From a bacterium (lineage in GTDB: Bacteria > UBA9089 > CG2-30-40-21 > SBAY01), in the NCBI GenBank assembly GCA_040757115.1, contig JBFLYA010000016.1, forward strand, positions 1-32,235: 32,235 nt of DNA. The letters run 5' to 3'. Of the stretch, positions 12,901 through 31,794 are shown piece after piece. The position numbers and the translations under genes are program-made. Below the pieces are notes generated by a model. That model saw only the letters and a list, made by a program, of their open reading frames with translations, did no database searches and was not told the origin of the DNA. Within the stretch, counting starts at the first letter, position 1. The number at the start of each line of letters is the position of its first letter.

Positions 12901-14577
12901 ACCATCTGTTTGTAGATTGTATGGTTGGTTATTATAGATGTTATTATAAATAAGTTCAGAAATTACTGAGGATTTACAGTAAATTCCGACGCCATTACCA
13001 TTTGGATTACCAGTACCACCTGTATTATCTTTGAAAGTATTATCATTAATAATGGTATTATTATCTGAGGAAATTAAGTAGACTCCACAACCTACACCAC
13101 CGCTACCCATAGAACTGCCTCCTGGTCCTCCCTCACCACCTCTGTTATCTAATATGATATTTCTTACTATGATGGTTGAGGTAGAAAAAGATAGTAATAT
13201 CCCTCCTCCAATATTACCTGGACCTCCCTGACTATAATCACTTTTTCCTCCTTGACCACCTCTATTGTTTGATATGGTATTATATATGATAGTATTTTCT
13301 ATTGAAGATAAAAAATATATCCCATATCCTATACCACCTGCACCACCAGAAGAAGGCATACCTTTAACACTACTTGTACCGCCTTGTCCCCCTTTGTTAT
13401 ATGAGATGGTATTAAATGAGATAGTATTTCTTGTTGAAGATCCAAGATATATCCCCCCTCCTACACCACCTACACCAGCATCACCGATAGCGTCAGGTAC
13501 TACTTCTCCCCCTTGTCCTCCTTTGTTATGTGATATGTTATTATATAAGATAGTATTTTCCATAGAAGTCATGAGATATACACCTATTCCATCGCCACCT
13601 GCACTCATTCCCTTCCCTGCAAGGTTAAGTCCCCTACCACCATCTCCTCCTCCTATTCTTAGAAATGAATTATTTTTTACATTATTATGATTTGCATCAT
13701 ATAAATATAACCCTACTCCAATTCCTCCATTACCCCAATTATCTCCTCCTAATCCTCCTGTAATATTCATAATATTATTTTCATATAGTTCATTATTATT
13801 AGATGAACTAATAAAGATTCCAATTCCCTCACCTGTAGTTATGTTCCAGAAACCTCCCTGTCCACCTTGAATATCATAGATATTATTACTACTAATTTTG
13901 TTCTTTTCAGATGAATTTAGCAATATTCCTATTCCTTTACCTCCATTTCCTCCAATGGTAAATGGATATGCTCCATCACCACCTTTACCACCTATTATAT
14001 TCATTATAGTATTGTTCTCTATAACATTAGAGTCTGCTGAAAATAGAGAAATTGCACTTGCTATTCCTCCATCGTTACCTACTCCAATTCCATCATCTCC
14101 TTTATGATTGGCAATTACATTATTATTAATTATAACATTAATCACATTTTCTAAATATATAGCTTGTTGACCATATTTGATTACACAATACTTAATTATA
14201 CTTCCATTACCTCCATTACCACTAACCTTAATTCCATTCCAATCTCCTGCCTGAGCAATAGTAGAAGTTCCTTGACCATTGGTTTCATCTTTAAAGGAGG
14301 TAAAAACAATCTTATTTGTTTCCTCGCCAGTAGCATTTAGAAAACCATAAGAAATCAAAGAAGTACCTGTAGCAAACTTTACTACTACCCCTGGCTCAAT
14401 TGTTAAAGTATTACCAAGTTCTACAATAACAGTTCCCGTGACAATATATGGACTATTCGTAGCCAACCAGGTGCCACTTTGAGTTCCAGTTACAGTAATA
14501 GTTGCTAAACTAATTCTTACCTCACTCATTAACCCCATAATCATTAAAATCCCAAACAAAAAAATTCTCTTAAGCAT
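9943..14577 (-). CDS. large secreted protein: Gly-rich parallel beta-helix repeats, IPT/TIG-like domains, cohesin-dockerin-cohesin, C-terminal T9SS/FlgD-like sorting domain
   Basis: Signal peptide; repeated NTI..N.I..N.GG.GG; LDFD..LEV and LSFDP.LLEV cohesin-like segments; GDSNNDGVVDIED / DYNGDERINIDD dockerin; VYPNPF...KIFNLAGELV...WDG...ASGVYIY C-terminus. Confidence 0.85.
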   Translation of the reverse strand: MLKRIFLFGILMIMGLMSEVRISLATITVTGTQSGTWLATNSPYIVTGTVIVELGNTLTIEPGVVVKFATGTSLISYGFLNATGEETNKIVFTSFKDETNGQGTSTIAQAGDWNGIKVSGNGGNGSIIKYCVIKYGQQAIYLENVINVIINNNVIANHKGDDGIGVGNDGGIASAISLFSADSNVIENNTIMNIIGGKGGDGAYPFTIGGNGGKGIGILLNSSEKNKISSNNIYDIQGGQGGFWNITTGEGIGIFISSSNNNELYENNIMNITGGLGGDNWGNGGIGVGLYLYDANHNNVKNNSFLRIGGGDGGRGLNLAGKGMSAGGDGIGVYLMTSMENTILYNNISHNKGGQGGEVVPDAIGDAGVGGVGGGIYLGSSTRNTISFNTISYNKGGQGGTSSVKGMPSSGGAGGIGYGIYFLSSIENTIIYNTISNNRGGQGGKSDYSQGGPGNIGGGILLSFSTSTIIVRNIILDNRGGEGGPGGSSMGSGGVGCGVYLISSDNNTIINDNTFKDNTGGTGNPNGNGVGIYCKSSVISELIYNNIYNNQPYNLQTDGTQTAEYNWWGSDPPATSTFSGNIDYDPWLKGTYTSPTITEISPTAGTIGTLVIIKGRGYIPTEGVQINFGTTLTITSVTTDLSGKFTAIFTTDTQPYGTTSIIATELLTGKKANGFFFITGGRIYILTPISGTVGTIITLSGNGYGRTEDIVIHFGTIRSIATSIASDAGTFSTTFTFPLMVRGTKTVTATGLKTLVSANAFFNVLCSTRLEIKPGSKIVTKGDEFGIDIWLKDVVNLAGLDVFLDFDHNRLEVLDDNPVEEGIQITQGPFPPEASLLYAAATNTSGQIAYSLILVPATNTADGSGILAKIRFKAKAPGTATIYFVFDKPDNRWTVLKDSDNQPIPVTTYGGTVTIFEYGSMEGYVIIDPPKDTGTNAGISITLVGVGTTSTGIGGYYTFLEVIPGTYTLQADTLGVALGTITGIVVYPGTKTIVATLTLLNGDSNNDGVVDIEDFMVLRNAYLSVIGDGRWNEESDYNGDERINIDDAMILRNSFFKTQPSPAPAPPAPAPPVKLPVKLAKTKLTFSPSAIDTFVGATFSVRIMIENVEDLAACQAQLSFDPNLLEVINLTTGNIGLPVIKSQFGVDTVDYAGGLLEGKVYESGILAEIEFKVKDSGITEIKFDFNPAKYRMTKMIDINSQAILFDVNEVKVNAKAISPLDHFEFDKIDSPKVDGIPFNVTIKALDIGNKIVDDYNNTGTLSLHNISGTITPKVITFGSGTWQGTVAISGTGTQVFICVRSSGKVGTSSLFEVKAINVPKESNEDILIKSEDEKAVVVIEKGSPNQDAYVEITKVTTPPSVPPNIPQDVSPVVIEINVVTAPKTKLEIKGSITLSYTDEQVKGLDESRLRIFYYTGSGWELAASNQEVDTFNNRITAYITHFSIYAIGNLVAPNLSNVQVYPNPFKPTTVHSGKYITFKNLTSYWNLKIFNLAGELVDEKTGDTNEAHWDGNNQAGNSCASGVYIYLITNDRNEKVTGRVVVIR

Positions 14578-14739
14578 TTTTTATCATCCCCCTTTTAACT
14601 TATTTAAACTTTCTGCAAAAACTCTTTATTTCATCCTAAGTTCTTTGACTATCTTTAGTTAATTATTTTATACAACTCTTGATAAACCCCAATTATTTTC
14701 TTCATCCAAACAAATTTTTAACTCATGATATAAAAGGAA

Positions 14740-16878
14740 TTAATTTTGCATTGTTATTTTATCTAACATCTGTTTAACCTCGATATTATTAGGTTCTAAT
14801 TCAATTGCCTTTTTAAATTCTTGAATAGCTTGTTGCTGTTTTCCTGTCCTGTGATAAAGTACACCAAGATTATAATGGGCATTAATACATTTAGGATTTA
14901 ATTTAAGTGCCTTTTGACAATGAATAATAGCTTTCTTATATTCCCCTCTATTTCCATAAATACCTCCTTGGGCACAATAAAGCTCTGCATAATTATTAAA
15001 TATTGCTTTTTCAATTTCTCCTAACGGTTTTCTCCCATTAATCATACCATTATAGATATTCCTATTAATTAAATGATAACTAATAATTTCTTTCCATACC
15101 TCATCCATATTTACACTTTCTTTTAACACCTTATAAAGAATTATTCCAGGTATTAATGAATAATTATTATTAAAAATTTCTAAACTATATGTATAAATAT
15201 GATAATTAGTTATATGATTATCTATGAAATTATTGAATCGTTTTGATGTATCCTTTTCTTGATAAAAATTAAGATTTAAATCGGGATATTTTCTCTTTAG
15301 GAAATCAATATAGTAATCATCACTCATTCCAACATAAATAATAGGTTTTATATCAGGATATTGATTTTCAACATCCTGAATGTAAGCAAGAGGGAAAACT
15401 ACTTTATCAGATCCCCTTTTTAATACCATAATTGCTTTTTCTTTCAATGGTCTCAAAAGATTTGTTATATAATCATAAGTAAGATAATAGTTATTATAAT
15501 TATTAGAATAATAATGAGTAGAAAAAAGAATAATTGGAATAATTAAAAAAGTAAATATAATAGATTTTATGTTCTTCTTCACTAACAATTTTGCTATTTC
15601 TCTAATTCCATATCCACTTAGAATACAAAAAATTAAAAAAGATATGATATAATAATCTCCAATATTTGGAATACGATATTGCGTTCCATAGGATATATTA
15701 GTAATAATTATCAAAGAAAATAAAATAAAAAGTAATTTTCTCCTGAAAAACATAAATAAACCTATTAATCCACTTAAAGTAAGATAAGGAGTAAACTGAT
15801 GCGGAAGAATAGAGATAATATACTTTATTATTTCTTTTATAAAATTTTCTATAGAAAATGGAGTAAGATATCGTAGTTTATACTCTCCTCCACTTATATG
15901 ACTTATAAATCTCTCTACGGTATCTGGTTTACCATAGCAATAAGTAGAATTATCAATTGCTCGAATAGGCAGATATAGGTATAAGAATAATGGCAAAATG
16001 AATAAACAAAGCAACTTGAGAAGTAGTGAGTAGTCAGTAGACAGTAAACAGTAGTAAGGTTTTCGAGTTGGATTTTCTTGCCTCCATTTCTTCCAGTACA
16101 CGGCTATGATAAAGAATATACTCGCTGGAACTAAATAAATTGTTTGCATGTGGTGGGTAAAGGATAAGCCAAGGGTGAAAGCGAAGAGGTAAAGATAGTT
16201 TTGAGTTTTGAGTTTTGAGTTTTGAGTTTTTCCCTCTGTTCTCCATGCTCCACGCTCCGTAGTTACTACTTCTGCCCACTTTAGGAGGATGAAGATTAAG
16301 AGCGTGGCAAACAGAGCATTTAAGGTGTACTTCTCTGCAATTACTGCTTGTTCCCAGAAGGTAATAGCAAAGGCAAGCATTAGTGCTCCAACTATCGCCG
16401 GAATGAGGGATGAGAGATGAGAGATGAATTTATTTTCCTCACTTCTTACTTCCCACTTCCCATTTCCTATTTTTAAGATGATAAAGTAGACCATCACACA
16501 CGCCAAAGAGGCACATAGAGCAGAAGCTAAATTCATCCGATAAGCAATGTTTCCAATCGGTAGAATAGTCATCCACAGTTTCCCCAGCAAACAATACAGC
16601 GGATAACCTGTTGGATGTGGAATACCAAGCACATAAGCCGCTGTTATCATATCCCCTGAATCATGAAATCCAATCGTAGGTGTTAAGGTATGCAGATACA
16701 CTGTCCAGCAGATAAAAAATACCAATATCCCACCTGCATAATCTATCGGACTAAATGCTCTGGGAACAATTGGCTCATCCTTTAGCCTAAGAAACTTTGG
16801 AATTTTAAAGGAAACTCTTCTCTCCTTCTTTTTTTGCCCTTTGGTCTCTTTCTTCTGTCCTGTAAGTTTCTTTCCCAT
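14740..16878 (-). CDS. DUF2723 (TMEM260-like) membrane glycosyltransferase with C-terminal TPRs
   Basis: DSGDMITAAYVLGIPHPTGYPLY, FWEQAVIAEKYTLN, LSFTHH, YLYLPIRA. TPR motifs at the C-terminus. Confidence 0.88.
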   Translation of the reverse strand: MGKKLTGQKKETKGQKKKERRVSFKIPKFLRLKDEPIVPRAFSPIDYAGGILVFFICWTVYLHTLTPTIGFHDSGDMITAAYVLGIPHPTGYPLYCLLGKLWMTILPIGNIAYRMNLASALCASLACVMVYFIILKIGNGKWEVRSEENKFISHLSSLIPAIVGALMLAFAITFWEQAVIAEKYTLNALFATLLIFILLKWAEVVTTERGAWRTEGKTQNSKLKTQNYLYLFAFTLGLSFTHHMQTIYLVPASIFFIIAVYWKKWRQENPTRKPYYCLLSTDYSLLLKLLCLFILPLFLYLYLPIRAIDNSTYCYGKPDTVERFISHISGGEYKLRYLTPFSIENFIKEIIKYIISILPHQFTPYLTLSGLIGLFMFFRRKLLFILFSLIIITNISYGTQYRIPNIGDYYIISFLIFCILSGYGIREIAKLLVKKNIKSIIFTFLIIPIILFSTHYYSNNYNNYYLTYDYITNLLRPLKEKAIMVLKRGSDKVVFPLAYIQDVENQYPDIKPIIYVGMSDDYYIDFLKRKYPDLNLNFYQEKDTSKRFNNFIDNHITNYHIYTYSLEIFNNNYSLIPGIILYKVLKESVNMDEVWKEIISYHLINRNIYNGMINGRKPLGEIEKAIFNNYAELYCAQGGIYGNRGEYKKAIIHCQKALKLNPKCINAHYNLGVLYHRTGKQQQAIQEFKKAIELEPNNIEVKQMLDKITMQN

Positions 16879-18481: not shown

Positions 18482-19678
18482 CTATACTCCCACTCTGTGG
18501 CAAATCATATTTTGATATTTCGCCTCTGTTGGCAGTAAGGCGAAGAATTTCAACCCAAGAATATATAAGATGCCAATAATGGCTACGATTCCGAGTGCTT
18601 GAGTGATTTCTGGCAAACTGATAAAATAACTTCCAATTGTCCCATCCCCAAAAGGACTACTTACTTCATAGCCAGGAAATAGTTCTGACGGAAGCACCTG
18701 ACCAGGAATAACAATAATAAATCTTTCGCAGAAAACACCCGATACAACCAGTGCTGAAGCAAAAACTATCCAACCAATAGATTTTTTAATAAAAAGTATA
18801 ATGACTGGCACAATAGAACCCATCAGTATCAGCCCAATCCAGAAAATCAGACAATATTCATTGCCACTAAATAAAAGGAAATGCGTTGCTTCATAGCTTG
18901 CGGGTGAATAAAGTCGGGTTAAATTCTCAACCGCAAGAAAATATAAAACAACAAGGATAAACGAAACCAATAGTCGGCTTAGACCTATAATTAGTTGCGG
19001 GTCCAAAAAGCGTCTGGTAACCTTAAAGGTTAGCACTAATAGAATGATAATTAAACCCGTTCCTGAAGATAAAGCCGCGGCAACGAAACTCGGTGGTGTT
19101 AGTGGTGAATGGTATAATTCTCTGCCACTGGTAAAACCAAAAATCCCGCCCGTGCCACTATGCACACCAATTGCCCAGACTACGGCTAAAACCCCAATTA
19201 CTTTAACCAATTTCTCCTTTTCGGTAATCATTGCCCAGAGATAAACAATACAAATCAAGATATAAGTTGAATATAGAAAGCCATTCCAGGAAAAGATAGA
19301 TTTTGGATTAAGGTAGAAAAATGCCAGCATAATTCTTTCTGGCCGACCTAAATCAAGTCCAAGGGATAAAAGTGCTCCAACAAGCAACAAAGCGGCTAAA
19401 TAAGCGGCTACACGGGCAAATCCTTTATATTCGGTTTTACCAAACACCGATGATAAAGATGACAGAACTAATGAACCCGCACTTAACCCAATAAAATAAA
19501 TAGTAAGAATAATTGGCAGTCCCCAGGGAACCTGATTATTCATTCCGGTGAGATAATGTCCTCTGGTGAACATTAGATAGGAAGAATATAGTCCAGCGAT
19601 AGCCAGGATGCTAAGGATTCCTAATAAAAGATACTGACCGGTTGATTTTCCTTCAATTTTGGTATAATATACTTTCAT
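18482..19678 (-). CDS. dsrP: DsrP, NrfD/PsrC-family membrane subunit
   Basis: VPWGLPI, DLGRPER, ~10 TM helices; follows dsrO. Confidence 0.9.
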   Translation of the reverse strand: MKVYYTKIEGKSTGQYLLLGILSILAIAGLYSSYLMFTRGHYLTGMNNQVPWGLPIILTIYFIGLSAGSLVLSSLSSVFGKTEYKGFARVAAYLAALLLVGALLSLGLDLGRPERIMLAFFYLNPKSIFSWNGFLYSTYILICIVYLWAMITEKEKLVKVIGVLAVVWAIGVHSGTGGIFGFTSGRELYHSPLTPPSFVAAALSSGTGLIIILLVLTFKVTRRFLDPQLIIGLSRLLVSFILVVLYFLAVENLTRLYSPASYEATHFLLFSGNEYCLIFWIGLILMGSIVPVIILFIKKSIGWIVFASALVVSGVFCERFIIVIPGQVLPSELFPGYEVSSPFGDGTIGSYFISLPEITQALGIVAIIGILYILGLKFFALLPTEAKYQNMICHRVGV

Positions 19679-19690
19679 TCGTTACCTACC

Positions 19691-20389
19691 TTATAATCCT
19701 AAATAATACACCTTTGGTTTTGAGCCTAAATCCGGGCGAATTGGGTGTGCTTTACCGCTTGCGACTAATTTAGCCACTTCACTGTTTGGGTCATTTAAGT
19801 TACCAAAAAACATCGCTTTGTTTGGGCAGGATACTACACAAACTGGCATCTCCCCGTTATCTACACGGCTCACACAAAAGTCGCATTTTTCCACTACCCC
19901 ATGTTGTCGTTTTGGGGAATCAGAATTAGTATATCCTTCTTGATGTTTAAACACAAAAGACCTGGATTTATACGGACAGACAATCATACAGTATCGACAA
20001 CCAATGCACCGGTGCTCATCAATTAACACAATGCCATCTTCGCGTTTAAAAGATGCCTTAACCAGGCAGACCTTAACGCAAAACGGGTCTTCACAATGAT
20101 TGCATAATAAAGGAACAGGTTGAGATTTGGCGTCTGGCACCTTTGGTGTTACACTGGCGACTCGAATCCAATAATTATCCAAAGACACATTATTTTCTTT
20201 TCGGCAAGCATCCATACACACAGTACAGCCTTCAACGCATTTGGTAACATCAATCACCATTCCCCATTTATTTTTTGCACTGGCTTTAATATCCTTTGCT
20301 AATAGAGAAGAGACCAATTGCGGTAATGGTCCCATTGCAGTTCCTATAGCTAACCCGCCGCCTATTTTGAGAAATGTCCGTCTATCCAT
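19691..20389 (-). CDS. dsrO: DsrO periplasmic Fe-S protein with Tat signal
   Basis: MDRRTFLK; CNHCEDPFCVKVC, CIGCRYCMIVCPY, GVVEKCDFC. Confidence 0.93.
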   Translation of the reverse strand: MDRRTFLKIGGGLAIGTAMGPLPQLVSSLLAKDIKASAKNKWGMVIDVTKCVEGCTVCMDACRKENNVSLDNYWIRVASVTPKVPDAKSQPVPLLCNHCEDPFCVKVCLVKASFKREDGIVLIDEHRCIGCRYCMIVCPYKSRSFVFKHQEGYTNSDSPKRQHGVVEKCDFCVSRVDNGEMPVCVVSCPNKAMFFGNLNDPNSEVAKLVASGKAHPIRPDLGSKPKVYYLGL

Positions 20390-20394
20390 TTATC

Positions 20395-20579
20395 TCTCCT
20401 GAAAATCGGGACTCGGGACTCGGGGTTCGGGACTCGGGAAGGCTGGTAGCCGCACGACCCATGCTCTGCATGGGTACCCCGAGCCTGCGTTGCTCGACTT
20501 CAGCATCCCCGCCCGCATCCTTTCTTTATTTTTTATCTTCCTTTGTGCCCACTCACCGTGGACATGTTCGTTTCTCCTG
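20395..20579. mobile_element. CCTGAAAAT-type unit at the dsrO RBS
   Basis: Flanked by tctcctg at 20395-20401 and 20573-20579. Ends in the conserved hairpin site 20528-20579. Contains (CGGGACT)n. Confidence 0.75.
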
Positions 20580-20602
20580 TCTCCTGTCTGTATCCTCCCT
20601 CT

Positions 20603-20995
20603 CTACTCTCTACTCTCCGTAATATGGCAATTCCAGCAATTCGGTTGGACATCAACATAATTATGACATCTATCACAAAAATCTGCTTTATTAGAATGAC
20701 ATTTCATACAGGTTTTCTGAAGACTTTTTTCGTATCTGACGCCATCAATAATTCCGACCTCTCTATTGCCCTGACGAATGACCGCCTCCCTCCATTCGTG
20801 AAGCAATTTCATATGTTCAGTCCTCATTACATCTTTTGGCTTGACACACTCTTTTTTAGACATTTTATTGATAACAGGCGTGTCAAGACCTGGTTCAGGA
20901 TTAGAAGATGCCTTCACCAGATTATAGAAGAATGGAAAACTTATTAATCCCACAAAAATAATCAAACCAGGAATTATTTTGCCTTTATCATACAT
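20603..20995 (-). CDS. dsrJ: DsrJ triheme cytochrome c
   Basis: MYDKGKIIPGL, MRTEHM.LL..WR..V.R, CMKCH, FCDRCH, CWNCH. Confidence 0.95.
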   Translation of the reverse strand: MYDKGKIIPGLIIFVGLISFPFFYNLVKASSNPEPGLDTPVINKMSKKECVKPKDVMRTEHMKLLHEWREAVIRQGNREVGIIDGVRYEKSLQKTCMKCHSNKADFCDRCHNYVDVQPNCWNCHITESRE

Positions 20996-21022
20996 CTTTA
21001 TACTCCTATGTTATTCAACTAT

Positions 21023-21406
21023 AAGACTTCTGTAAAACTAAGAAACTGTAGTTTTTAAGCGGGTATTTAAAACCTTTATTTTTATCAATTTCCTCCAAAA
21101 TTCAAAATGCAAAAAGCAAATATAAAAATTACATATCAAAATGTAAAATTATCTCTTTCCTTTCAGCGTTAAAATACTTGAAGCAAAGATATTACCACAT
21201 TCCTCCAACTTTTTGAGAAACACTATTCTTTGGCAACTTATCGATGAATTCTATAAGTCGCAGAGTATAGTTATCCACTCTTTTCTTGAAGTCCTTTTTG
21301 AAATTTGATTTGTAATTTTGCATTTTGATATTTATATTTGATATTTAATATTTGATATTTAATATTTATTTGTTGTCTCCCCCCAATCCTATTTTGCAGA
21401 ACCCTA
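21023..21406. mobile_element. MITE with imperfect TIR and ~20-bp target duplication (IS1182-like), carrying a heptamer-arm cassette
   Basis: tcctatgttattcaactata (21004-21023) vs tcctatgttatttagctata (21407-21426). Ends aagacttctgtaaaa / ttttgcagaacccta. Confidence 0.7.
21149..21323 (-). pseudogene. internally deleted four-helix-bundle gene remnant within CAAAATG-type arms (21095-21366)
   Basis: MQNYKSNFKKDFKKRVDNYTLRLIEFIDKLPKNSVSQK, then in a shifted frame LEECGNIFASSILTLKGKR*. Confidence 0.82.
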
Positions 21407-21413
21407 TCCTATG

Positions 21414-23021
21414 TTATTTAGCTATATTTGGCAGTTCTTCACCCCGCAAATTAGTGGTTCTTTCCTTTTCTCCTTTCATCACGAGTGCATTTGCCACTAA
21501 CTCAGTCACACCTGTTACATCCACACCCGGCACCCAGTAATTCATCAAAGGAGGCAGTGCGGCGCGGTCAATGGCACAGATACAGGCAAGCATATTTACG
21601 CCATATTGCTCCTGAACATACTTGACAGCCATTGCCCTGGGTAATCCACCCCTAAGCCGCAATTCCATATTCTCAGAGGCATTCAACCCTGAACCACTGC
21701 CACAACAAAATGTCTTTTCCCGAATGGTATCTTCAGGCATTTCATAGAAATGGGGACAGACATTTTTTATAATATAGCGTGGTTCTTCAAACATTCCCAT
21801 CCCGCGGGCAACATTACAGGAATCATGAAAGGTTACTTTTAAATGGTCATTTCGTTTTGGGTTAAGGTTAAGTTTTCCATGTTTAATTAAATCAGCGGTA
21901 AATTCTGAAATATGAATCATTTTTGTTGATTTGGCATTCTCAAATTTCGTGCCCGTGATGGGTGAAATAGGCACTTCAAGGAAATCTGCAGGTCCGTTCC
22001 AGGTATCCATATACTGATTTATCACTCGCCACATATGACCGCATTCGCCACCAATAATCCACTTAACACCTAACCTTTTTGCCTCAGCGTATATTTTAGT
22101 ATTAAGTCGTTTTGCCAGTTCCATCGAGGTAAAAAATCCAAAATTCCCACCTTCAGAGGCATAAGTGCTCCAGGTGTAATCGAGTCCGAGTTCGTGGAAT
22201 AGTATCAAATAGCCCATACAGGTATAGGTGCCCGGGTCAGCAAACAGGTCACCTGACGGTGTAACAAAGAGTATTTCTGCTCCTTTTCTATTGAAGGTTG
22301 GCGATACCCGCACACCTGTTTTTTCTTCTATTTCATCAAGCAGGAAATCAATGGAGTTTTTAATCGTATGCGGTTCAAGGCCTAAGTGATTTCCTTTCAT
22401 ATAACAGTTTGCGGCTGGACCGGCAATCCATTCTATATTTAACCCCAAAAGATTGAGCAGTTCGCGGGCAATCATCGTAATTTCAGCAGTATCAATGCCG
22501 TAGGGACAAAAAACAGAACAGCGGCGGCATTCAGAGCATTGATAGAAATAATACCACCATTCTTTGAGCACATCAAGAGTAAGTTTTCGCCCACCGGCTA
22601 ACTTTCCCAGTACCTTTCCTATATTTTTAAAATTTCCTCGATAAACTGACCGAAGTAATTCTGCTCGTAATACTGGCATATTTTTCGGGTCGCCTGTGCC
22701 AAGAAAATAATGACATTTATCCGCACAAGCACCACAGCGGACACAAATATCCATAAAAATCTTAAAAGACCGATATTTTTTCAGTCGCTCAGCCATCCCT
22801 TCTAAAACTATCTCCTGCCAGTTATGAGGAAGTTTCCAGTCCTCATCAAGCACAGACCATGTTCTTGGATTTGGGAAATCTACGGTTTGCAGGCTTTTCT
22901 CCTTTGCCCCATAGCAGAACATCCCTTCCTTCCTTTCAACCGGGAGATTCATCCATGATTTTTGTGGAGGTTTATAATTTATTTGAGATATTATTTCTTG
23001 AGGTTTTGGTTCTTTAGCCAT
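21414..23021 (-). CDS. dsrK: DsrK HdrD-like Fe-S protein
   Basis: CVRCGACADKCH, CSECRRCSVFCPYGID, GECGH, HDSCN, CCGSGSG. Start MAKEP follows AGGAG. Confidence 0.96.
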   Translation of the reverse strand: MAKEPKPQEIISQINYKPPQKSWMNLPVERKEGMFCYGAKEKSLQTVDFPNPRTWSVLDEDWKLPHNWQEIVLEGMAERLKKYRSFKIFMDICVRCGACADKCHYFLGTGDPKNMPVLRAELLRSVYRGNFKNIGKVLGKLAGGRKLTLDVLKEWWYYFYQCSECRRCSVFCPYGIDTAEITMIARELLNLLGLNIEWIAGPAANCYMKGNHLGLEPHTIKNSIDFLLDEIEEKTGVRVSPTFNRKGAEILFVTPSGDLFADPGTYTCMGYLILFHELGLDYTWSTYASEGGNFGFFTSMELAKRLNTKIYAEAKRLGVKWIIGGECGHMWRVINQYMDTWNGPADFLEVPISPITGTKFENAKSTKMIHISEFTADLIKHGKLNLNPKRNDHLKVTFHDSCNVARGMGMFEEPRYIIKNVCPHFYEMPEDTIREKTFCCGSGSGLNASENMELRLRGGLPRAMAVKYVQEQYGVNMLACICAIDRAALPPLMNYWVPGVDVTGVTELVANALVMKGEKERTTNLRGEELPNIAK

Positions 23022-23046
23022 ATTCACTCCTTTTGGAAGTATTTTT

Positions 23047-23125
23047 GCCACAGAGGCACAGAGTGCACAGAGGATTATTTATTTTCTATTATTTTCTCTC
23101 TGTGTCCTCTGTGTCTCTGTGGCTA
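23047..23125. mobile_element. empty GCCACAGAG-arm cassette between dsrM and dsrK
   Basis: Arms identical to 256-681 with the gene fully deleted. Confidence 0.88.
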
Positions 23126-24118
23126 ATCCTTTTCCACCGGGATACCCACCTGTTTCATTCTTTCGCGGTAGTGCTCTTCGTATTCTTCATAAGTATGAAC
23201 TTTTACTGGATAATTCCACGGATTAATATGTCTTTTCATCCGATTATTATTTGCCAGATTTCGAGTTGGACTCAGGAAAATTCCTCCCATATGCACCAGT
23301 TTGCTAAATGGGAAATATATCAACAAGATGCAAACTAAAAACAGGTGGATATAAAAGATGACATTCACATCCGCAGGAATTACCGGTTGAAATCTTAACA
23401 ATCCTAAGGTATATGCCTTTAAACTCACCACATCAACCTTCACAAAATACCTCATCAGAATACCTGAAATGGCTATGGCAATGATTAAAAGAAGAGGGAA
23501 GTAATCCGCAATAGGTAATGAGATGTAATAGACTTTAGGGCTTAATATTCTACGGAGTAAAAGAAACGATATTCCAGCCAAAAGTCCAACTCCGGATAAG
23601 AATACCACCGGTGAACCTATCTCCATAAATCCATCCAGCCTACAAATCAGACTGATACAAGAAGGCACTGGCTCAATAAATAACCGACAATGTCTAATGA
23701 CAACAATAAAAAAAGACCAATGAAAGATTAATGCCGCAAGCCAGAGTAATTTTTCTTCGAGATGAAGAAAGTAAGGACCCTGTTTTAATTGGGTTTGTGT
23801 ATTGCGGAAAAGTGAGCGAAAGAGAAGAATCTCTAAAACCATTCTTCCGATAGCCCCAATACCTGTTGCTGGATTTTCAAAACAGGCACTTTTAATCCAG
23901 GGAAGTGATTTTTGCTGTCCACAGGTCGTTGGTATGCGGAAAGGAACAGGAGATTGTGCCCATCGGACAATGCGCCAAAGGACACCAACAATAAAAATAA
24001 AAATAGCTAAATACGGAATGATAACTCCAAAAAGTAGATGCAGATTTGCAGTTTCTATTCCCAGATATGCCAGTAAAACTAATATTATCACGGCTAATAA
24101 CGGTAATAAAACTTTCAT
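23123..24118 (-). CDS. dsrM: DsrM NarI-like membrane cytochrome b
   Basis: SPVPFRIPTTCGQQKSLPWIK, FHWSF...RH, YFPFSKLVH...SPTRN. ATGA overlap with dsrT. Confidence 0.96.
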   Translation of the reverse strand: MKVLLPLLAVIILVLLAYLGIETANLHLLFGVIIPYLAIFIFIVGVLWRIVRWAQSPVPFRIPTTCGQQKSLPWIKSACFENPATGIGAIGRMVLEILLFRSLFRNTQTQLKQGPYFLHLEEKLLWLAALIFHWSFFIVVIRHCRLFIEPVPSCISLICRLDGFMEIGSPVVFLSGVGLLAGISFLLLRRILSPKVYYISLPIADYFPLLLIIAIAISGILMRYFVKVDVVSLKAYTLGLLRFQPVIPADVNVIFYIHLFLVCILLIYFPFSKLVHMGGIFLSPTRNLANNNRMKRHINPWNYPVKVHTYEEYEEHYRERMKQVGIPVEKD

Positions 24119-24561
24119 TTGACACCCCACTTCATCATTTCATTTGTCTGAAGTTGATAAATCTTTTCTCTGCATTTCATAAATATATCAAACGAAATCG
24201 TTGCTAATCTATCTATTTTAGATTCAAGGGCTAATAATTCATTATATTCACTGCCAATTTTCTCTCTAATTGCCTGTTTTAGAACGAAAATAAAGGATAT
24301 AGCTTGTGAGGGAGCAACTCCCTGCACTGCTTTAATTTTGATTATATCCTCTAAAAATTTATCTACACCCTTGTTTTGAATAATTCCATCAAAAATGCCT
24401 TCAATCCCTTTTCTGATTGTCCATCCTACTGGATTAGCGAATTGGTTTTTCTCTGTTTTTACAAACTCTGCCGTCTGTTGTGGATAGGTATTAAGTATCA
24501 AATCAAACCATCTGTTGATAATAGATTCCTTTTTTCTTAATAAGACATCATTTAATTCCAT
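24115..24561 (-). CDS. dsrT: DsrT (RsbRD N-terminal domain protein)
   Basis: RWFDLILNTYP..QFANPVG..IKAVQ..PSQAISFIFVLK..FDIFMKCREKIYQL. Directly upstream of dsrM. Confidence 0.9.
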   Translation of the reverse strand: MELNDVLLRKKESIINRWFDLILNTYPQQTAEFVKTEKNQFANPVGWTIRKGIEGIFDGIIQNKGVDKFLEDIIKIKAVQGVAPSQAISFIFVLKQAIREKIGSEYNELLALESKIDRLATISFDIFMKCREKIYQLQTNEMMKWGVK

Positions 24562-24581
24562 ACAATTTAAACCCTGGATGA

Positions 24582-24638
24582 ATTGCGGATTGTGAATCTG
24601 TATTTTCAGTCCGCAATCCGCAATCCACAATCTGCGAT
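24582..24638. repeat. empty heptamer inverted-arm cassette (TGCGGAT / ATCCGCA)
   Basis: attgcggattgtgaat ... tccgcaatccgcaatccacaatctgcg. Confidence 0.7.
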
Positions 24639-24649
24639 TAATTATACAC

Positions 24650-25145
24650 GTAACCGTTCAGGGCTATACATTAGAAGTGTAAACAAGGAGAAATGGGGAA
24701 AAGGGAGAATTGGAGAAATGGCTCAAACTTTTTCTTGCTCCACCCTTCGGACATCAATCCTGGAGTCTGCGAAATTTACCAGTAACCCTATTTCTTTATC
24801 CACTGCTCTAAGGTATGATCTAACCTGATTATAATACTTCCCACTTATCTCCTCAACAGTTTTAATCTCTACCACAATCTCATCTTCAACAAAAAGATCA
24901 AGTCTATGAACCCCAACCTCGACACCTTGATAGAATATCTTGACTTCTTTTTCTGATTCAAAGATGATGTTCTGTCTTGCAAACTCAACCTTCAAGGCAT
25001 TGTGATAGATGCTCTCCAGAAAACCAGGTCCTAACTTTTTATGGACATTAATACAGGCATTAATAATCCTATCAGTTAACTCTTCTTTTCTCCACTTCTC
25101 CATCTTCTCCCTTTCTCCTCATTTTTATCCTACCTGAACCCTTAC
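24650..25145. mobile_element. 496-bp GTAA-MITE with 8-bp TSD carrying an intact GxxExxY gene in GGAGAA arms
   Basis: gtaaccgttcagg / cctgaacccttac. ttatacac at 24642-24649 and 25146-25153. Confidence 0.93.
24723..25103 (-). CDS. GxxExxY protein (PD-(D/E)XK nuclease-like)
   Basis: VHKKLGPGFLESIY, RLDLFVEDEIVVEIK, QVRSYL...GLLVNF. Confidence 0.93.
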   Translation of the reverse strand: MEKWRKEELTDRIINACINVHKKLGPGFLESIYHNALKVEFARQNIIFESEKEVKIFYQGVEVGVHRLDLFVEDEIVVEIKTVEEISGKYYNQVRSYLRAVDKEIGLLVNFADSRIDVRRVEQEKV

Positions 25146-25481
25146 TTATACACAGCCAGTTGGCTTGGGCAGACCAGCAATTTTACAGGCTTGTTTTGCT
25201 GGACCTGCTGGGAAAAGTTCATAAAGATATTTGTTATTTCCTTTTTCAGGACCAAACATCTTTGCCATCTCTTTTATCAAAATCTTAATCATTGGCGCAA
25301 TTTGATATTCCTTGTAATAATTTCTTAAGAAATTCACCACTTCCCACCGGCGTTCATCCAGCTCAATATCCTCAGTTTTAGCAATGTGCACCGCGACTTC
25401 CTCAGTCCAATCATCTAAATTTTGGAGATACCCTTCTTCATCCGTCTCATAAGTTTTTCCTTTAAATTCAAAACCTGGCAT
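25146..25481 (-). CDS. dsrC: DsrC sulfur carrier
   Basis: DEEGYL..W, YLYELFPAGPAKQACKIAGLPKPTGCV with both C-terminal Cys (CX10C). Confidence 0.97.
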   Translation of the reverse strand: MPGFEFKGKTYETDEEGYLQNLDDWTEEVAVHIAKTEDIELDERRWEVVNFLRNYYKEYQIAPMIKILIKEMAKMFGPEKGNNKYLYELFPAGPAKQACKIAGLPKPTGCV

Positions 25482-25545
25482 AATTTTACACCTCCTCTTT
25501 GTTTGGCAATTTATCTCTTATTAAAAGAGTTGTCATTATTGTAAA

Positions 25546-25947
25546 GTAGAGAGTAGAGAGTAGAGAGTAGAGAGTAGAGAGAAAATTTTTCCTCCACCCT
25601 GTTTTTTCCCTATTTTCATTCTCATTTGTGAACCCACGGTTCATAGGCGTTTCCCCTGAAAATCGGGACTCGGGACTCGGGGTTCGGGAAGAAAGAAACT
25701 CTCAGCAATTCCCCCTTAATAAAGGGGGTTAGGGGGTTGTCCTTCTCCCATTTTCATTGCCCTTTGTGAGCCTTGGCTCATGTCCGTTTCCTCTGAAAAT
25801 AGCGAATTAGTGAATTAGTATAGTATCCACAGATTCGTATCTTATGGTTTAGAACAGATATTCCCCCTTAATAAAGGGGGTTAGGGGGTTGTTCTTCCAT
25901 TATTTTCATCCCCCTTTGTGAGCCGCAGGCTCATGAGCGTTTCTCCT
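25546..25947. repeat. tandem array of three CCTGAAAAT-type units
   Basis: Conserved site attttcat..tttgtg-hairpin-cat..cgtttc.cctgaaaat at 25612-25663, 25750-25800 and 25902-25947, with variable 86- and 101-nt fillers. Confidence 0.85.
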
Positions 25948-26011
25948 TGAACCTGACAACCATTGCCTGTTGTTTCACTTTAGATGGCTAAATAGTTATA
26001 AAAGAAATACA

Positions 26012-26068: not shown

Positions 26069-27433
26069 TTATTTATAGGCTTTACCTCTTTCCACAAAAC
26101 TGACAAATTGTTGTGCCCAGTGTGGGACTCCGAGGCTGTGGAAATGAGTATATGAGGCAATAACATTTTTATAGATAATTCCATCGTGCCTACCATTTAC
26201 ACCTTTACCACGAATAACATTATAGCCAAAATCCAGTTGAGCAGGATTAGTAATCTGTGAGTAGTGGAACTCATGGCCTCTAATTTTTCCATCGAAATTA
26301 AACCACTGATTTTTAGTGGTGGTTTGCAAAATTACATAACCGTGTCCTTGCGGTTTTTCATACACACAAATATCACACGGAATAGCACCGACCATTTCTT
26401 TAGTTATGCCCTGATAAGATATATTTCTGGCTAAATACATCAAACCACCGCATTCTGCATAGACTGGTATTCCTTGTTCTATGGAGGTGCGAATATCTGT
26501 TAGCAATGATTTATTTTTGGATAAACTTTCGATGAATATTTCCGGAAAACCGCCTCCAAAATACAACCCATCTACTTGAGGTAATTTATCATCAGTCAAG
26601 GTATTGAACGGCACAAGCTCTGCCCCTGCTCTGGCAAGTGCGTCCAAATTATCTTTGTAATAAAAGGTAAATACCGGGTCTCTGGCTATGCCTATTTTGA
26701 CTACTGGCGAAGGTATTTGATACTCTTGTTTTTTTAATGTAGGTAAAGAAAAGGCATCTTTTGAAAGGCTAATAACCTTATCTAAATCTACATAATTTTG
26801 TATTACTGCGGCAATAGATTCAATTACAGAAATAAGATTTAATTCTTCTTTGATTGGAATTAATCCTAAATGTCGCTCTTTAATTTCAATCTCTGATAGT
26901 CTTGGTATAGCACCTAAAATCTCTAAATCAGAATGTTTATAAATGGCTTCTTTTAGTTTTACCTCATGTCGTGTCGAGGCAACATTATTTAAAATTATGC
27001 CTGAAATTAAATTATCCGGGTCAAAATGTTGATAACCAAAGACAAGCGGGGCAACGCCGTAAGTCATTCGACTGGCATCAATAACTAATAAAACTGGGGT
27101 TTTGAGAATTTTAGATAAATATGAGGTGCTGTCTTTACCATCAATATCCAGGCCATCATAAAAACCCATATTCCCTTCAATGAGGCTTAAATCTGTATCC
27201 TGACTTGCCTGCTGGAAAGCCTCGCATATTTTTTTCTCTCCCATCATAAAGAAATCCAGATTAAGACATTCCTTTCCTGCGGCGGCTGTTAGCCACATTG
27301 GGTCGATATAATCAGGTCCCTTTTTAAAAGGCTGGATGATTAGCCCACGCTTTCTCAAAGCCGCACATAACCCAATACATATCGTTGTCTTTCCTGAACT
27401 TCTATGAGCTGCCGAAATGATAATTCTGGACAT
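26069..27433 (-). CDS. dsrN: DsrN, cobyrinate/siroheme a,c-diamide synthase-like
   Basis: SSGKTT, FKKGPDYIDP, ERHLGL, GGGFPE, YAECGGLMYL, GHEFHYS, in dsr context. Confidence 0.88.
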   Translation of the reverse strand: MSRIIISAAHRSSGKTTICIGLCAALRKRGLIIQPFKKGPDYIDPMWLTAAAGKECLNLDFFMMGEKKICEAFQQASQDTDLSLIEGNMGFYDGLDIDGKDSTSYLSKILKTPVLLVIDASRMTYGVAPLVFGYQHFDPDNLISGIILNNVASTRHEVKLKEAIYKHSDLEILGAIPRLSEIEIKERHLGLIPIKEELNLISVIESIAAVIQNYVDLDKVISLSKDAFSLPTLKKQEYQIPSPVVKIGIARDPVFTFYYKDNLDALARAGAELVPFNTLTDDKLPQVDGLYFGGGFPEIFIESLSKNKSLLTDIRTSIEQGIPVYAECGGLMYLARNISYQGITKEMVGAIPCDICVYEKPQGHGYVILQTTTKNQWFNFDGKIRGHEFHYSQITNPAQLDFGYNVIRGKGVNGRHDGIIYKNVIASYTHFHSLGVPHWAQQFVSFVERGKAYK

Positions 27434-30298: not shown

Positions 30299-30805
30299 TT
30301 AGAATTCCCGCAGGAAGATTAATTCATTTATAATTGAAGCAAATTGTCGTGGTAAAAAGGCTAATAGAATCTTGACCACCCAATATAAGTGGGGAATAAT
30401 TTGAGAGGAGTTAATTAACTTGTTGGCAAATGGCAATTTAGCTAAAATTATAACGATAATTACCGCGATTATCACTCCTCGAACAAAACCAAATGCTATC
30501 CCTCCAACCCTATCTAACCAGTTTAGCGATAATTTCTTTAATGTTTTTTGAAGAAAGACTCCAATAAGATTTATCAAGACACACACAATTAAAAATATAA
30601 GACCATAGGCAATTATATCTGCCCAAAAGGATGATTTGATAAATCGGATTAAAAACAGGGCTATTTTTGAATATAGTAGATTAGCCACTATAATCCCGGC
30701 TATTATCGAGAGCAGTGAGAATACTTCTTTTATCAGCCCTCTAAACAGACCAAAAACCATACTGATAATGATAATGACTAAAAAGAAAATATCTAATGGA
30801 TTCAT
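30299..30805 (-). CDS. cvpA: CvpA family membrane protein
   Basis: MNPLD...GLFRGLIKEVFSL...LDRVGGIAFGFVRG. Confidence 0.9.
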   Translation of the reverse strand: MNPLDIFFLVIIIISMVFGLFRGLIKEVFSLLSIIAGIIVANLLYSKIALFLIRFIKSSFWADIIAYGLIFLIVCVLINLIGVFLQKTLKKLSLNWLDRVGGIAFGFVRGVIIAVIIVIILAKLPFANKLINSSQIIPHLYWVVKILLAFLPRQFASIINELIFLREF

Positions 30806-31319
30806 TTCTCCTGTAAATAGCCGATGTCAGACGTAAGACAAGGCTTATTGCTTTTTCATAAATAGGTTCCTCTTTTGGGGAGAGCGATAGCAAGAAGAAC
30901 TTTAATGTAAATATCAAAATGCAAATATCAAAATTACAATGCAAAATGCAAAAATACTTGTAAATTAACAAAGTAGCTGGAGAATATTTTGATTTTTGAT
31001 TTGTAATTTTACATTTTGATGTTTGATTTTTAATTTATTTCCCCTGAAAATGTCCGTAAGTCATTGTAATTGCTTGAGTTACAAAATTACATTTTCATTG
31101 TCCTTTGTGAGTCGCAGACTCATGAGCGTTCCCCTGAAAATAGCCGTAAGAATAGAACACGGATGACACGGATTTAACGGATTTTCGCTGATTTTTTTCT
31201 CTTTTTTCTGTCTTCTGTCTTCTATCTTATATCCGCGAATATCCGCATTATCAGCGTCATCAGCGTGCTATTATTTTTCATCTTCCTTTGCTCCCTGTGG
31301 GCATATCCGTTTCTCCTGT
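30805..31319. mobile_element. array of CCTGAAAAT-type units at the cvpA RBS, with empty arm cassettes at 30905-31032 and 31155-31268
   Basis: tttctcctgt at 30805-30814 and 31310-31319. Conserved sites at 31091-31141 and 31273-31318. Unit starts at 30810 and 31043. Confidence 0.75.
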
Positions 31320-31320
31320 T

Positions 31321-31794
31321 TTACACATTTTCCAATTCTAAAATTAGTGCTTCTTCATTACAGTTTGGGAAATGGATACACTTAATGCATTCTCCCCAGA
31401 TTTTATGTGGTAAAGTAGCTTTATCAACTAACTTAAATCCAAATCTCTTGAAAAAATCGGGATTATAGGTTAAGACAAAGATTTTATTTACCTCAAGTTC
31501 TTTTGCAGAAGCAATTGCGGAATCAAGTAATTTAGTGCCTATCCCTTGTTCAGTCATCTCTCTTTTTACAGCTAAAGACCTTATTTCAGCCAGGTCTTTC
31601 CAGACAATATGCAAGCCACAACAGCCAATTACCTGACCATCTCTTTCTGCAACAAAAAAATCTCTCATCCCTTCGTATAACTCACTCAAAGAACGAGGTA
31701 AGAGATTACCTTTCTGGGCATAAGAGTTAATAAGTTGTTGAATTTCATCAATATCTCTAATTTTGGCTTTACGGATATAAATCTTTTCTTCCAT
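31321..31794 (-). CDS. argA: GNAT N-acetyltransferase, short ArgA-like N-acetylglutamate synthase
   Basis: LLPRSLSELYE..RDF, LAEIRSLAV, LPHKIW.EC..C.HFP.C.E.A. Confidence 0.8.
   Translation of the reverse strand: MEEKIYIRKAKIRDIDEIQQLINSYAQKGNLLPRSLSELYEGMRDFFVAERDGQVIGCCGLHIVWKDLAEIRSLAVKREMTEQGIGTKLLDSAIASAKELEVNKIFVLTYNPDFFKRFGFKLVDKATLPHKIWGECIKCIHFPNCNEEALILELENV

Follow-up and report, generated by a model that had tools for sequence, protein, structure and literature searches.

The stretch analysed here (the window, 32,235 nucleotides, nt) is the whole of contig C68 (JBFLYA010000016.1) of a 4.32-Mb metagenome-assembled genome (MAG) in 462 contigs with 36.8% GC (GCA_040757115.1; hereafter G000), from a bacterium of the lineage UBA9089. 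Between dsrC and a CobB/CobQ-like amidotransferase gene lies a stack of short non-coding units, each containing a conserved site with a variable hairpin, and further units stand elsewhere in the window. A first-pass annotation made from the letters alone had reported six such sites, at 25612, 25750, 25902, 20528, 31091 and 31273. The core pattern recovers all six on the plus strand (100 shuffles gave a mean of 0.02 and a maximum of 1), the box ATTTTCAT begins 13-14 nt 5' of every TTTG core at exactly these positions, and the stems GAACC/GGTTC, GAGCC/GGCTC (twice) and GAGTC/GACTC read as described. In the two degenerate sites, at 20528 and 31273, the box reads ATTTTTTAT and ATTTTTCAT, and the stem at 31287 is shortened. 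The features of the locus are as follows.

20542, 25625, 25763, 25915, 31104 and 31287, plus strand: starts of the six TTTG cores
25546..25581, plus strand: run of tandem heptamers, (TAGAGAG)n, on the left margin of the stack, within the leftmost filler, which extends from the dsrC start (25481) to site A
25612..25663, plus strand: site A, ATTTTCAT-n5-TTTGTG[GAACC-cac-GGTTC]CAT-agg-CGTTTC-CCC-TGAAAAT; 69.2 bits with covariance model R1
25657..25793, plus strand: one permuted unit as gained or lost, consisting of TGAAAAT, filler and then site B (25750-25800)
25794..25947, plus strand: last unit of the stack, consisting of TGAAAAT, filler and site C (25902-25947); 72.6 bits with R1
20396..20578, plus strand: single unit upstream (in gene sense) of a dsrO-like open reading frame (ORF), with (CGGGACT)n, filler and degenerate site D (20528-20578)
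31045..31134, plus strand: unit with a 39-nt filler and site E (31091-31141; stem GAGTC/GACTC)
31135..31317, plus strand: terminal unit with a 131-nt filler and degenerate site F (31273-31317)
25146..25481, minus strand: dsrC (PF04358, E 9e-47), downstream (in gene sense) of the stack; context, outside the element
26069..27433, minus strand: CobB/CobQ-like amidotransferase gene, upstream (in gene sense) of the stack; context

Site B reads ATTTTCAT-n5-TTTGTG[GAGCC-tt-GGCTC]CAT-gtc-CGTTTC-CTC, and the filler of its unit consists of (CGGGACT)n and the hairpin CCCCCTTAATAAAGGGGG; the edges of this unit were deduced from comparisons of filled and empty sites together with the junction consensus. 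The filler of the last unit combines (GAATTAG)-type heptamers with the CCCCCTTAATAAAGGGGG module, and site C terminates in CGTTTCTCCT, beyond which the DNA is unique. The annotation had also remarked that filler pieces are reused between units, and this reuse is real: CGGGACT repeats occur at 20406-20439 and 25664-25690, and CCCCCTTAATAAAGGGGG at 25709 and 25861, within a 70-nt direct repeat of 87% identity. The (TAGAGAG) heptamer is abundant in another genome, G003, as well. At the single unit, CTCC-TGAAAAT lies 6 nt from the start codon of the dsrO-like ORF (CAT, 20387-20389), so that the gene-sense reading is ATTTTCAGGAGAGATAA-ATG, and the terminal unit stops at 31317, 3 nt from the stop codon of the upstream GNAT ORF (31321-31794, minus strand). 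The orthologous dsrC-cobB spacer of G004, which belongs to a different genus, has no unit. The cassettes punctuate the sulfur-metabolism locus of this organism.

Mobile repeats flank dsrC and the dsrMKJOP-like genes throughout this locus (18482-25481) and set them apart from one another. At the two dsr-locus stacks, the same heptamer run is found in opposite orientations (CTCTACT-type at 20596-20616, TAGAGAG at 25546-25581). The spacer that holds sites E and F also contains an AT-rich inverted repeat (30903-31037) with 51-nt arms that are 73% complementary and short repeats of the (CAAAATG/ATATCAA) type; sequences similar to it form contig-end families of 15, 11 and 10 members.

Genome-wide, the strict core pattern occurs 147 times, against once in a shuffled genome, and these copies comprise 53 hairpin sequences of about eight stem types; a loose pattern that allowed two substitutions was as frequent in the shuffled genome (1221 against 948) and was dropped. 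A profile built from the strict copies finds 219 copies (111 on the plus and 108 on the minus strand), only 10 of them inside ORFs of at least 100 amino acids (aa), and R1 gives at least 150 matches. The copies form 154 stacks of one to five units. On the strand on which the annotation had written the site (hereafter the site strand), a unit consists of TGAAAAT, a variable filler, ATTTTCAT, about 5 nt, TTTGTG, the variable hairpin and CAT-nnn-CGTTTC-YCC(T). Units are 75-190 nt long and non-coding, with fillers of 11 to about 130 nt made of heptamer runs and small GC hairpins. In contigs of public sequencing runs, the summed word depth was 10,000-57,000 over the stack of the window vs about 300 in its flanks. 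The statement that the site matches no CRISPR repeat stands, given that the spacing is irregular (50-450 nt) and the fillers recur elsewhere, and the possibility that it belongs to a catalogued RNA family was checked against Rfam: no match in the window attains the gathering score, the best sub-threshold match in 25480-26000 scoring 16.2 bits vs a gathering score of 47.5 and the hits at E <= 10 being no better than chance.

The compensatory changes that had been noticed in the stem are borne out as covariation in a structure-aware (model-guided) alignment of 108 copies (102 distinct sequences) taken from G000, its relatives and unrelated carriers, which represent at least five lineages. Pairing is found in 95.5% of the cells vs 76.9% in column shuffles, with none of 500 shuffles reaching the observed value; sliding the 3' partner by 1-3 columns lowers pairing to 31-51%, and all four inner stem pairs show changes on both sides (125 cells vs 44.3 in shuffles). 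At the base of the helix, read on the site strand, G27.U60 is present in all 102 distinct sequences and U26.G61 in 95, the remaining 7 having U-A, and the variable inner stem contains 43 GT/TG cells vs 8 AC/CA cells. The core also folds more stably on the site strand in 61 of 73 distinct sequences (mean -9.38 vs -7.17 kcal/mol). The wobble pairs and the stability bias agree in identifying the site strand as the one that folds, as the annotation had it, and this asymmetry argues against a hairpin that acts in mRNA and for a single-stranded DNA or antisense RNA form. The fold has two tiers, an outer 7-bp stem and, beyond an internal loop, an inner helix based on the invariant U.G/G.U tandem. The outer stem, which had been expected to form from ATTTTCA and TGAAAAT, is closed in 40 of the 44 minimum-energy folds computed for distinct units; its arms are conserved but show no covariation. 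On the site strand, the hairpin followed by CGTTTCTCCT was flagged as terminator-like.

The units are strongly oriented, both relative to one another and relative to genes. Among 102 neighbouring pairs, 65 are less than 400 nt apart, and all 65 lie on the same strand with none on opposite strands, in line with the head-to-tail stacking that had been proposed. For the 219 profile copies, both flanking ORFs are opposite to the copy in 107 cases and both on the same strand in 10; the other combinations of the two flanks are none and opposite (36), opposite and none (31), same and opposite (11), opposite and same (10), none and same (10), and same and none (4). In gene sense, the unit reads ATTTTCAGGAGAAACG-nn-CATG[hairpin]CACAAAGGnnnATGAAAAT, and the gene-sense end of a stack is ATTTTCAGGAG, most commonly located 5-7 nt before a start codon, a position in which it supplies a Shine-Dalgarno sequence. 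There are 319 motifs of the form ATTTTCAG[GA][GA]G in the genome, of which 109 run into the frame and 210 are terminal. The start of an ORF of at least 60 aa lies within 40 nt of 88 of the 210 terminal ATTTTCAGGRG-type motifs, and for half of these (44 of 88) the distance is 5-7 nt (11, 18 and 15 motifs at 5, 6 and 7 nt, respectively). The window provides an example at 20387-20406, ahead of the dsrO-like gene, and a degenerate form at 30803-30823, ahead of a CvpA-like gene. At the far end of the stacks, homology extends through CGTTTC-TCCT (T 65, C 62, C 68 and T 61 of 73 terminal cores) and then decays. Since a stack ends at the start codon on one side and at the upstream stop codon on the other, it replaces the 'stop - Shine-Dalgarno - start' spacer and has GGAG at both ends. 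The first-pass annotation had noted neither that the units lie antisense to genes, nor their link with Shine-Dalgarno sequences, nor their occurrence in several lineages, described below.

Comparison with G001, a genome of the same genus with flanks 97-98% identical (42 stretches mapped onto G000), reveals units that are present in one genome and missing from the other. Among the comparisons with an unambiguous reading, two units (316 nt) of G001 (L071/L115) correspond to an empty TATCTCCTGAATATT / TGTATCTCCTGAATATTGACTG site in contig C441 of G000, three units (431 nt; L073/L121) to TATTTCTCCTTC (...TATTTCTCCTTCTTG...) in C21, and two units to a AGGGAGAAA site (L055 vs C33). One unit is bracketed on both sides by the 13-nt sequence ATTTTCAGGGGAA (L122 vs C162), one is an extra unit within a stack (L074 vs C51), and a solo hairpin of 33 nt adjoins CCTCCTTT. 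The cores are involved in 8 of the 46 indels listed for about 330 kb of this comparison. The unit boundary falls at the core between TTTCYCC and TGAAAAT, which places the junction that had been put at CCTG between CTCC and TGAAAAT; the flanking repeats at the junctions vary in length from 4 to 14 nt. A two-unit block of the type seen at 25794..25947 is found at six G001 loci, 88-94% identical to G000:C98, which indicates that blocks move or are copied together.

Searches in other genomes revealed the same frame in distant bacteria. With R1 at E <= 0.001, matches were obtained in 7 of the 41 genomes of the relatives search (G000 included): at least 132 in the same genus, 23 and 12 in two other genera of the family, and one or two weak ones in each of three genomes. 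In 185,579 species genomes, the strict pattern picked out 11 stretches in four MAGs, labelled Candidatus Sumerlaeota, Pseudomonadota and, in two cases, simply 'bacterium', in which R1 (E <= 0.01) yields 7 (Sumerlaeota), 8 (Pseudomonadota), 31 and 82 (Zod_Metabat.896) matches. The strict pattern also gave 8 stretches in a metagenome scan and none in viral contigs. These distant copies, in DNA of 44-65% GC, have different hairpins in the same frame, ATTTTCAT-n5-TTTGTG[..]CATGnnCGTTTCACCTGAAAAT. Their setting is likewise similar: in G044 (82 copies), 32 hits fall in 24 loci with both neighbours opposite in 11 and both on the same strand in 2, and a unit with an 11-nt filler stands between copies of the 14-nt direct repeat TTTCAYCTGAAAAT; the four distinct units seen between gene pairs in the Sumerlaeota-labelled MAG are all antisense to both genes; and in one metagenome organism, two stacked units, both antisense, stand between two genes. 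The genes next to units are unrelated housekeeping genes, and the neighbours checked around the matches of the genome and metagenome scans (26 + 6 ORFs) include no linked recombinase. Altogether, the 40-nt frame is nearly identical in genomes of 37-65% GC, which suggests either horizontal spread or reliance on a host factor that is itself very conserved.

We consider it reasonably probable that the units are non-autonomous, site- and orientation-specific mobile cassettes that home to ribosome-binding sites. Units would enter and leave at the core, between TTTCYCC and TGAAAAT (in gene sense, between ATTTTCA and GGRGAAA), their natural targets being Shine-Dalgarno-like GGAG(A) sequences ahead of genes and between cistrons. 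Every inserted unit would bring a fresh copy of the core at its end, which would leave the downstream gene with a ribosome-binding site and allow a further unit to land in the same place; repeated landing at the core would in turn produce same-orientation, head-to-tail stacks antisense to the genes. The orientation would thus follow from the target and may be reinforced by selection against a hairpin plus T-rich tract that read in the sense direction. The fold would be the recognition structure of a trans-acting factor that handles the unit as single-stranded DNA or RNA. We infer that the filled/empty differences represent insertions and not solely deletions. As for the first-pass interpretation as a whole, the fold, the stacking, the boundary, the gain and loss of units and the distinction from attC and CRISPR have held, and the enzyme has not.

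Several observations weigh against this reading. The filled/empty differences carry no outgroup polarity, so that each may be a gain or a precise loss, and an 'empty' site may in every case have arisen by deletion between short direct repeats. Where a single unit differs within a stack, the boundaries are ambiguous over 13-22 nt and unequal recombination is an equally good explanation. At C441, a further 12-nt duplicate stands at the right junction of the filled allele, which is not what a simple crossover at the core would leave. The copies share descent, and the wobble and covariation counts are therefore not counts of independent events; the gene calls behind the orientation counts are crude (non-overlapping ORFs of at least 100 aa delineated with no gene finder, covering 79% of the genome); and copy numbers are lower bounds, as 57 of the 154 stacks lie 400 nt or less from a contig end. 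The search for circular junctions that the annotation had recommended for reads turned up neither such a junction nor an excision joint in the contigs of three public sequencing runs. Finally, none of the five recombinase and transposase families tested co-occurs with the units.

The annotation had taken the site for the recognition site of a trans-acting recombinase or an HUH/IS110-type enzyme; the folded, conserved site is there, and no enzyme could be tied to it. Nor was a longer, enzyme-encoding unit found: where two sites on the same strand are 400-4000 nt apart, the DNA between them holds ordinary genes of the opposite strand. None of the seven Y1_Tnp matches of G000 lies beside a unit; the repeats in their flanks are of other kinds. 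The domain occurs in 29 of the 41 genomes with or without units, namely in all carriers (as fragments only, of 41 and 53 aa, in G003) and also in most non-carriers. The integron integrase was rejected as the mover since it is tied to a canonical attC array and shows no correlation with units. G000 has one full integrase gene (368.6 bits, cut-off 265), a second (327.8 bits) that contains a stop codon, and fragments on another six contigs. The full integrase, on C322, heads an array with canonical attC sites of about 60-134 nt that are unlike the units, and no unit lies within this array. TIGR02249 scores above its cut-off in 11 of the 41 genomes of the relatives search (G000 included), mostly non-carriers, and at E <= 1e-30 it has no match in the carriers G041, G042 and G044. 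The IS110 DEDD transposase, RVT_1 and Resolvase were likewise rejected, as none correlates with units across 13 genomes: DEDD_Tnp_IS110 was not found in G044 (82 units) or G042, RVT_1 (four matches in G000) was not found in the carriers G041 and G042 and is present in non-carriers, and Resolvase has no match in G000. Multi-copy genes are often lost from binned assemblies, which makes the absence of an enzyme weak evidence.

In the course of these searches, a classical chromosomal integron was delineated at G000:C322:13613-24000 (locus L173 covers 12143-16072), with the integrase followed by small ORFs and attC sites, along with about seven further integrase copies or fragments (C223, C423, C22, C18, C251, C62 and C20). 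Another locus, G000:C430:13080-14100, has a CRISPR-like 37-nt repeat with spacers on both sides of a 155-aa Y1_Tnp gene.

A different relationship emerged between the units and two families of contig ends, L1 and L2. The right end of L1, a common 125-nt sequence at 25 contig ends (e.g., C53:1-125), finishes in ...TTGACATTTCACCATAAGAC, and 22 of these 25 ends directly abut TTTGTG and the remainder of the frame, with hairpins of various types. The left end, at 19 contig ends (e.g., C165:1-230), reads in gene sense ...TATACGAGGACG and is followed in 17 of 19 cases by ATGAAAAT and filler, and in the other two by a gene start. Taken together, the two ends place L1 exactly in the 5-nt spacer of the unit. 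The interior of L1 is missing from the assembly; joined, its ends would give TTGACA-17 nt-TATAAT. L2, at seven contig ends, has both termini in common with L1, and its interior, on the 1.7-kb contig C586 of G001 (L181), contains a DEDD_Tnp_IS110 match (84.4 bits). Ends of the L1/L2 type also occur at sites without units. IS110-family recombinases are guided by a non-coding RNA, and from these junctions we read L1 as a putative IS110-family element that would target CCTCC followed by TTT, a sequence offered by every unit. The IS110-type enzyme that had been suspected of moving the units thus appears in the opposite role, with its elements inserting at the site. In a known parallel, REP sequences serve as targets of the insertion sequences IS621 and IS1397 (PMC3184786).

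Beside a variant L1 left-end region, on C197, there is a 38-aa ORF fragment with no Pfam hit and no tblastn relative in the genome, which presumably resembles the helix-hairpin-helix motif of IS110. A module of about 230 nt (G000:C197:4385-4720; G005:C281, L165:1390-1620), which contains several similar 9-mers and ends in a GC hairpin and T's, is the left part of L1 in G000 and lies between ilvD and a phosphoribosyltransferase gene in G005; it has 27, 6, 13, 7 and 4 matches in this family of genomes.

Several other explanations have to be set against homing cassettes. It has been considered that the units are cis-acting RNA modules of 5' untranslated regions and intercistronic spacers, retained by selection as ribosome-binding-site cassettes, as standby or coupling sites, as hairpins for processing or stability, or as barriers to antisense transcription, and spread solely by recombination between copies. 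The stack end at Shine-Dalgarno distance from start codons, the gene-sense frame itself, which reads as a Shine-Dalgarno sequence, 7-8 nt and ATG, and the strong orientation bias would all fit such modules; the terminator-like hairpin with CGTTTCTCCT implies that selection against terminators inside operons could produce this bias, and comparable heptamer repeats are described just upstream of start codons in Beggiatoaceae (PMC4679880). However, the helix is better in the strand antisense to mRNA (43 wobble cells vs 8), its invariant wobbles becoming A.C mismatches in the mRNA, the ATG of the frame falls in differing reading frames across hairpin variants so that no peptide is conserved, and the downstream genes are unrelated housekeeping genes. 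Moreover, recombination alone hardly explains a 40-nt frame conserved across 37-65% GC or units at sites with just 8-12 nt of similarity, and we regard this explanation as unlikely. Slightly harder to accept is a REP- or PATE-like nature of the units, in which a Y1 HUH transposase (IS200/IS605 TnpA or RAYT) would mobilise them as single-stranded DNA by recognising the hairpin and cutting on the 3' side of the CTCC motif. The strand-specific fold and the orientation-specific insertion beside a fixed short motif identical to the element's own end are what such an enzyme would leave, and G000 has its seven Y1_Tnp matches; yet 0 of 7 Y1 genes lie beside a unit, with other repeats in their flanks, the domain is distributed over 29 of 41 genomes irrespective of units, G003 maintains 23-31 units with only the 41- and 53-aa fragments, inverted pairs are lacking (0 of 65), unlike in REPINs, and each unit has a single conserved hairpin instead of two similar subterminal ones.

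To the same low degree we can credit spread through an RNA copy of the site-strand polarity by target-primed or template-switch reverse transcription, in which ribosome-binding sites would offer GGAGAAA for annealing of the 3' end ...CGUUUCUCCU. An RNA helix tolerates just such tandem invariant G.U/U.G pairs and such an excess of wobbles, the unit stops on its right where the hairpin and its U-rich tract end, multi-unit blocks move together, AGGAG microhomology is present at both junctions and G000 has four RVT_1 matches; against this, no promoter for such an RNA was identified, the U-tract is weak, and RVT_1 was not found in the carriers G041 and G042 while being present in non-carriers. That IS110-family recombinases move the units is very improbable. 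L1 does sit exactly between ATTTTCAT-n5 and TTTGTG (22 of 25 right and 17 of 19 left ends), L2, with the same termini, holds DEDD_Tnp_IS110 (84.4 bits), and the joined L1 ends give TTGACA-17 nt-TATAAT, but these data show that the site is a target of the insertion sequence and not that the insertion sequence moves units; no sequence is common to the units and the L1 ends, L1/L2 ends also occur at unit-free sites, and DEDD_Tnp_IS110 was not found in G044 or G042. Least credible of all are unusual integron cassettes with attC-like sites recombined by the integron integrases of the genome, an idea already largely refuted. Two stems around an unpaired spacer, head-to-tail stacks with a crossover at the 5' edge of the right arm, and the presence in G000 of one full integrase with about seven copies or fragments recall an integron; however, the C322 integrase heads its own canonical attC array without units, the arms ATTTTCA/TGAAAAT misfit the attC core-site consensus, the units are spread over 154 loci and not gathered in one array, G044, G041 and G042 have no integrase match at E <= 1e-30, and many non-carriers have integrases.

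The family resembles REP/BIME mosaics, the small dispersed repeats of Nostoc and integron arrays, and fails the defining tests of REP/REPIN elements and of integron cassettes. Literature searches on small dispersed and heptamer repeats yielded no account of this family, and none of four 15-mers from the frame occurs in the 8.4 million papers covered (supplements lay outside the search). REP, BIME and REPIN elements with RAYT transposases (Bertels and Rainey 2011; PMC3116915) are likewise short extragenic hairpin repeats that number in the hundreds and are interspersed with other short motifs in mosaics; like the units, they are non-autonomous and serve as insertion-sequence targets. In contrast, the units occur in direct orientation only (0 of 65 inverted doublets), flank no RAYT (0 of 7 Y1_Tnp), home to upstream ribosome-binding sites and have a frame conserved across distant lineages. 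A parallel in form is offered by SDR4-6 of Nostoc punctiforme, which Elhai and colleagues reportedly described in 2008 as very small hairpin elements with compensatory changes, said to be nested in conserved contexts and among tandem heptamers, with interchangeable hairpins in one frame. To our knowledge, no enzyme is known for SDR4-6, and we know of no description in them of Shine-Dalgarno homing, head-to-tail stacks or the core TTTCNCCTGAAAAT. The host differs, being here a dsr-bearing, non-cyanobacterial MAG.

The attC sites of integrons have the core consensus R''/R' RYYYAAC ... GTTRRRY. Like them, the site described here is folded, strand-specific and two-stemmed (outer stem in 40 of 44 folds, strand bias in 61 of 73 sequences), and like integron cassettes the units form same-orientation arrays with a crossover at the edge of the right arm and several of them movable together. 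The arms ATTTTCA/TGAAAAT, however, contain no attC core sites and the true attC sites on C322 look different, in agreement with the first-pass statement that this is no attC; the units are 75-190 nt long, non-coding, dispersed over 154 loci and without a linked integrase, the true integron being separate. Miniature inverted-repeat transposable elements (MITEs) and IS200/IS605 palindrome-associated elements are comparable in being non-autonomous, with terminal inverted 7-mers (ATTTTCA/TGAAAAT), apparent short direct repeats at the junctions and presence that is polymorphic between strains. In contrast to both, no parent insertion sequence with the ends of the units was found, the hairpin module lies outside the inverted 7-mers of the filler, and the target is a specific motif that is regenerated by the element; in contrast to DDE-type MITEs, the flanking repeats have no fixed length (4-14 nt). 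The junctions share CTCC(T), which may be either a duplication or a recognition motif. Heptamer direct repeats upstream of start codons are reported from Beggiatoaceae, Cyanobacteria and Bacteroidetes (MacGregor 2015; PMC4679880). They are similar in being tandem, a few nt before start codons, present in several distant lineages and without a known transfer mechanism; heptamers here are merely filler in a larger unit defined by the conserved hairpin frame.

Apart from the units, these genomes contain other abundant repeats. Right after the dsrC stop codon, the window has a cassette (24651-25145) with inverted repeats GTAACCGTTCAGG / CCTGAACCCTTAC that encloses a PDDEXK_3 (PD-(D/E)XK) ORF (24723-25103); parts of it occur on about 30 G001 contigs with 95-100% identity, and a similar cassette with other arms is present in one and absent from the other of G001 and G000 (L125 vs C415). 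A very abundant MITE family has GTAACCGTTCAGG / GTAACTATTCACC-type terminal repeats and heptamer-repeat arms (e.g., L113/C5, L114/C24, L115/C166 and L118/C334), some copies containing a small four-helix-bundle-like ORF. It forms contig-end families of 80 and 79 members and is behind many of the 46 G001 indels and about one-third of all contig ends.

A bolder version of the homing-cassette reading, which we put forward as speculation and hold to be unlikely, is that of enzyme-less, cross-phylum cassettes that home to Shine-Dalgarno sequences through a single-stranded, probably RNA, antisense intermediate, with a hairpin based on the invariant tandem G.U pairs and with ...CGUUUCUCCU pairing with GGAGAAA at ribosome-binding sites. 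Integration would then be carried out by a host function other than a classical transposase, and as each insertion would regenerate both the ribosome-binding site and the target, the element would be nearly harmless and self-stacking. What moves a unit of 75-190 nt without a linked enzyme is a question of the same kind as that posed by the small dispersed repeats of Nostoc. The units are also a natural, repeated landing pad for an IS110-family element and could be useful for studying the target choice of these recombinases. If the homing-cassette reading is true, a selfish element can occupy the most constrained bases before a gene without damage by bringing its own ribosome-binding site, and this would explain the long, assembly-breaking intergenic spacers in uncultivated dsr-bearing bacteria.

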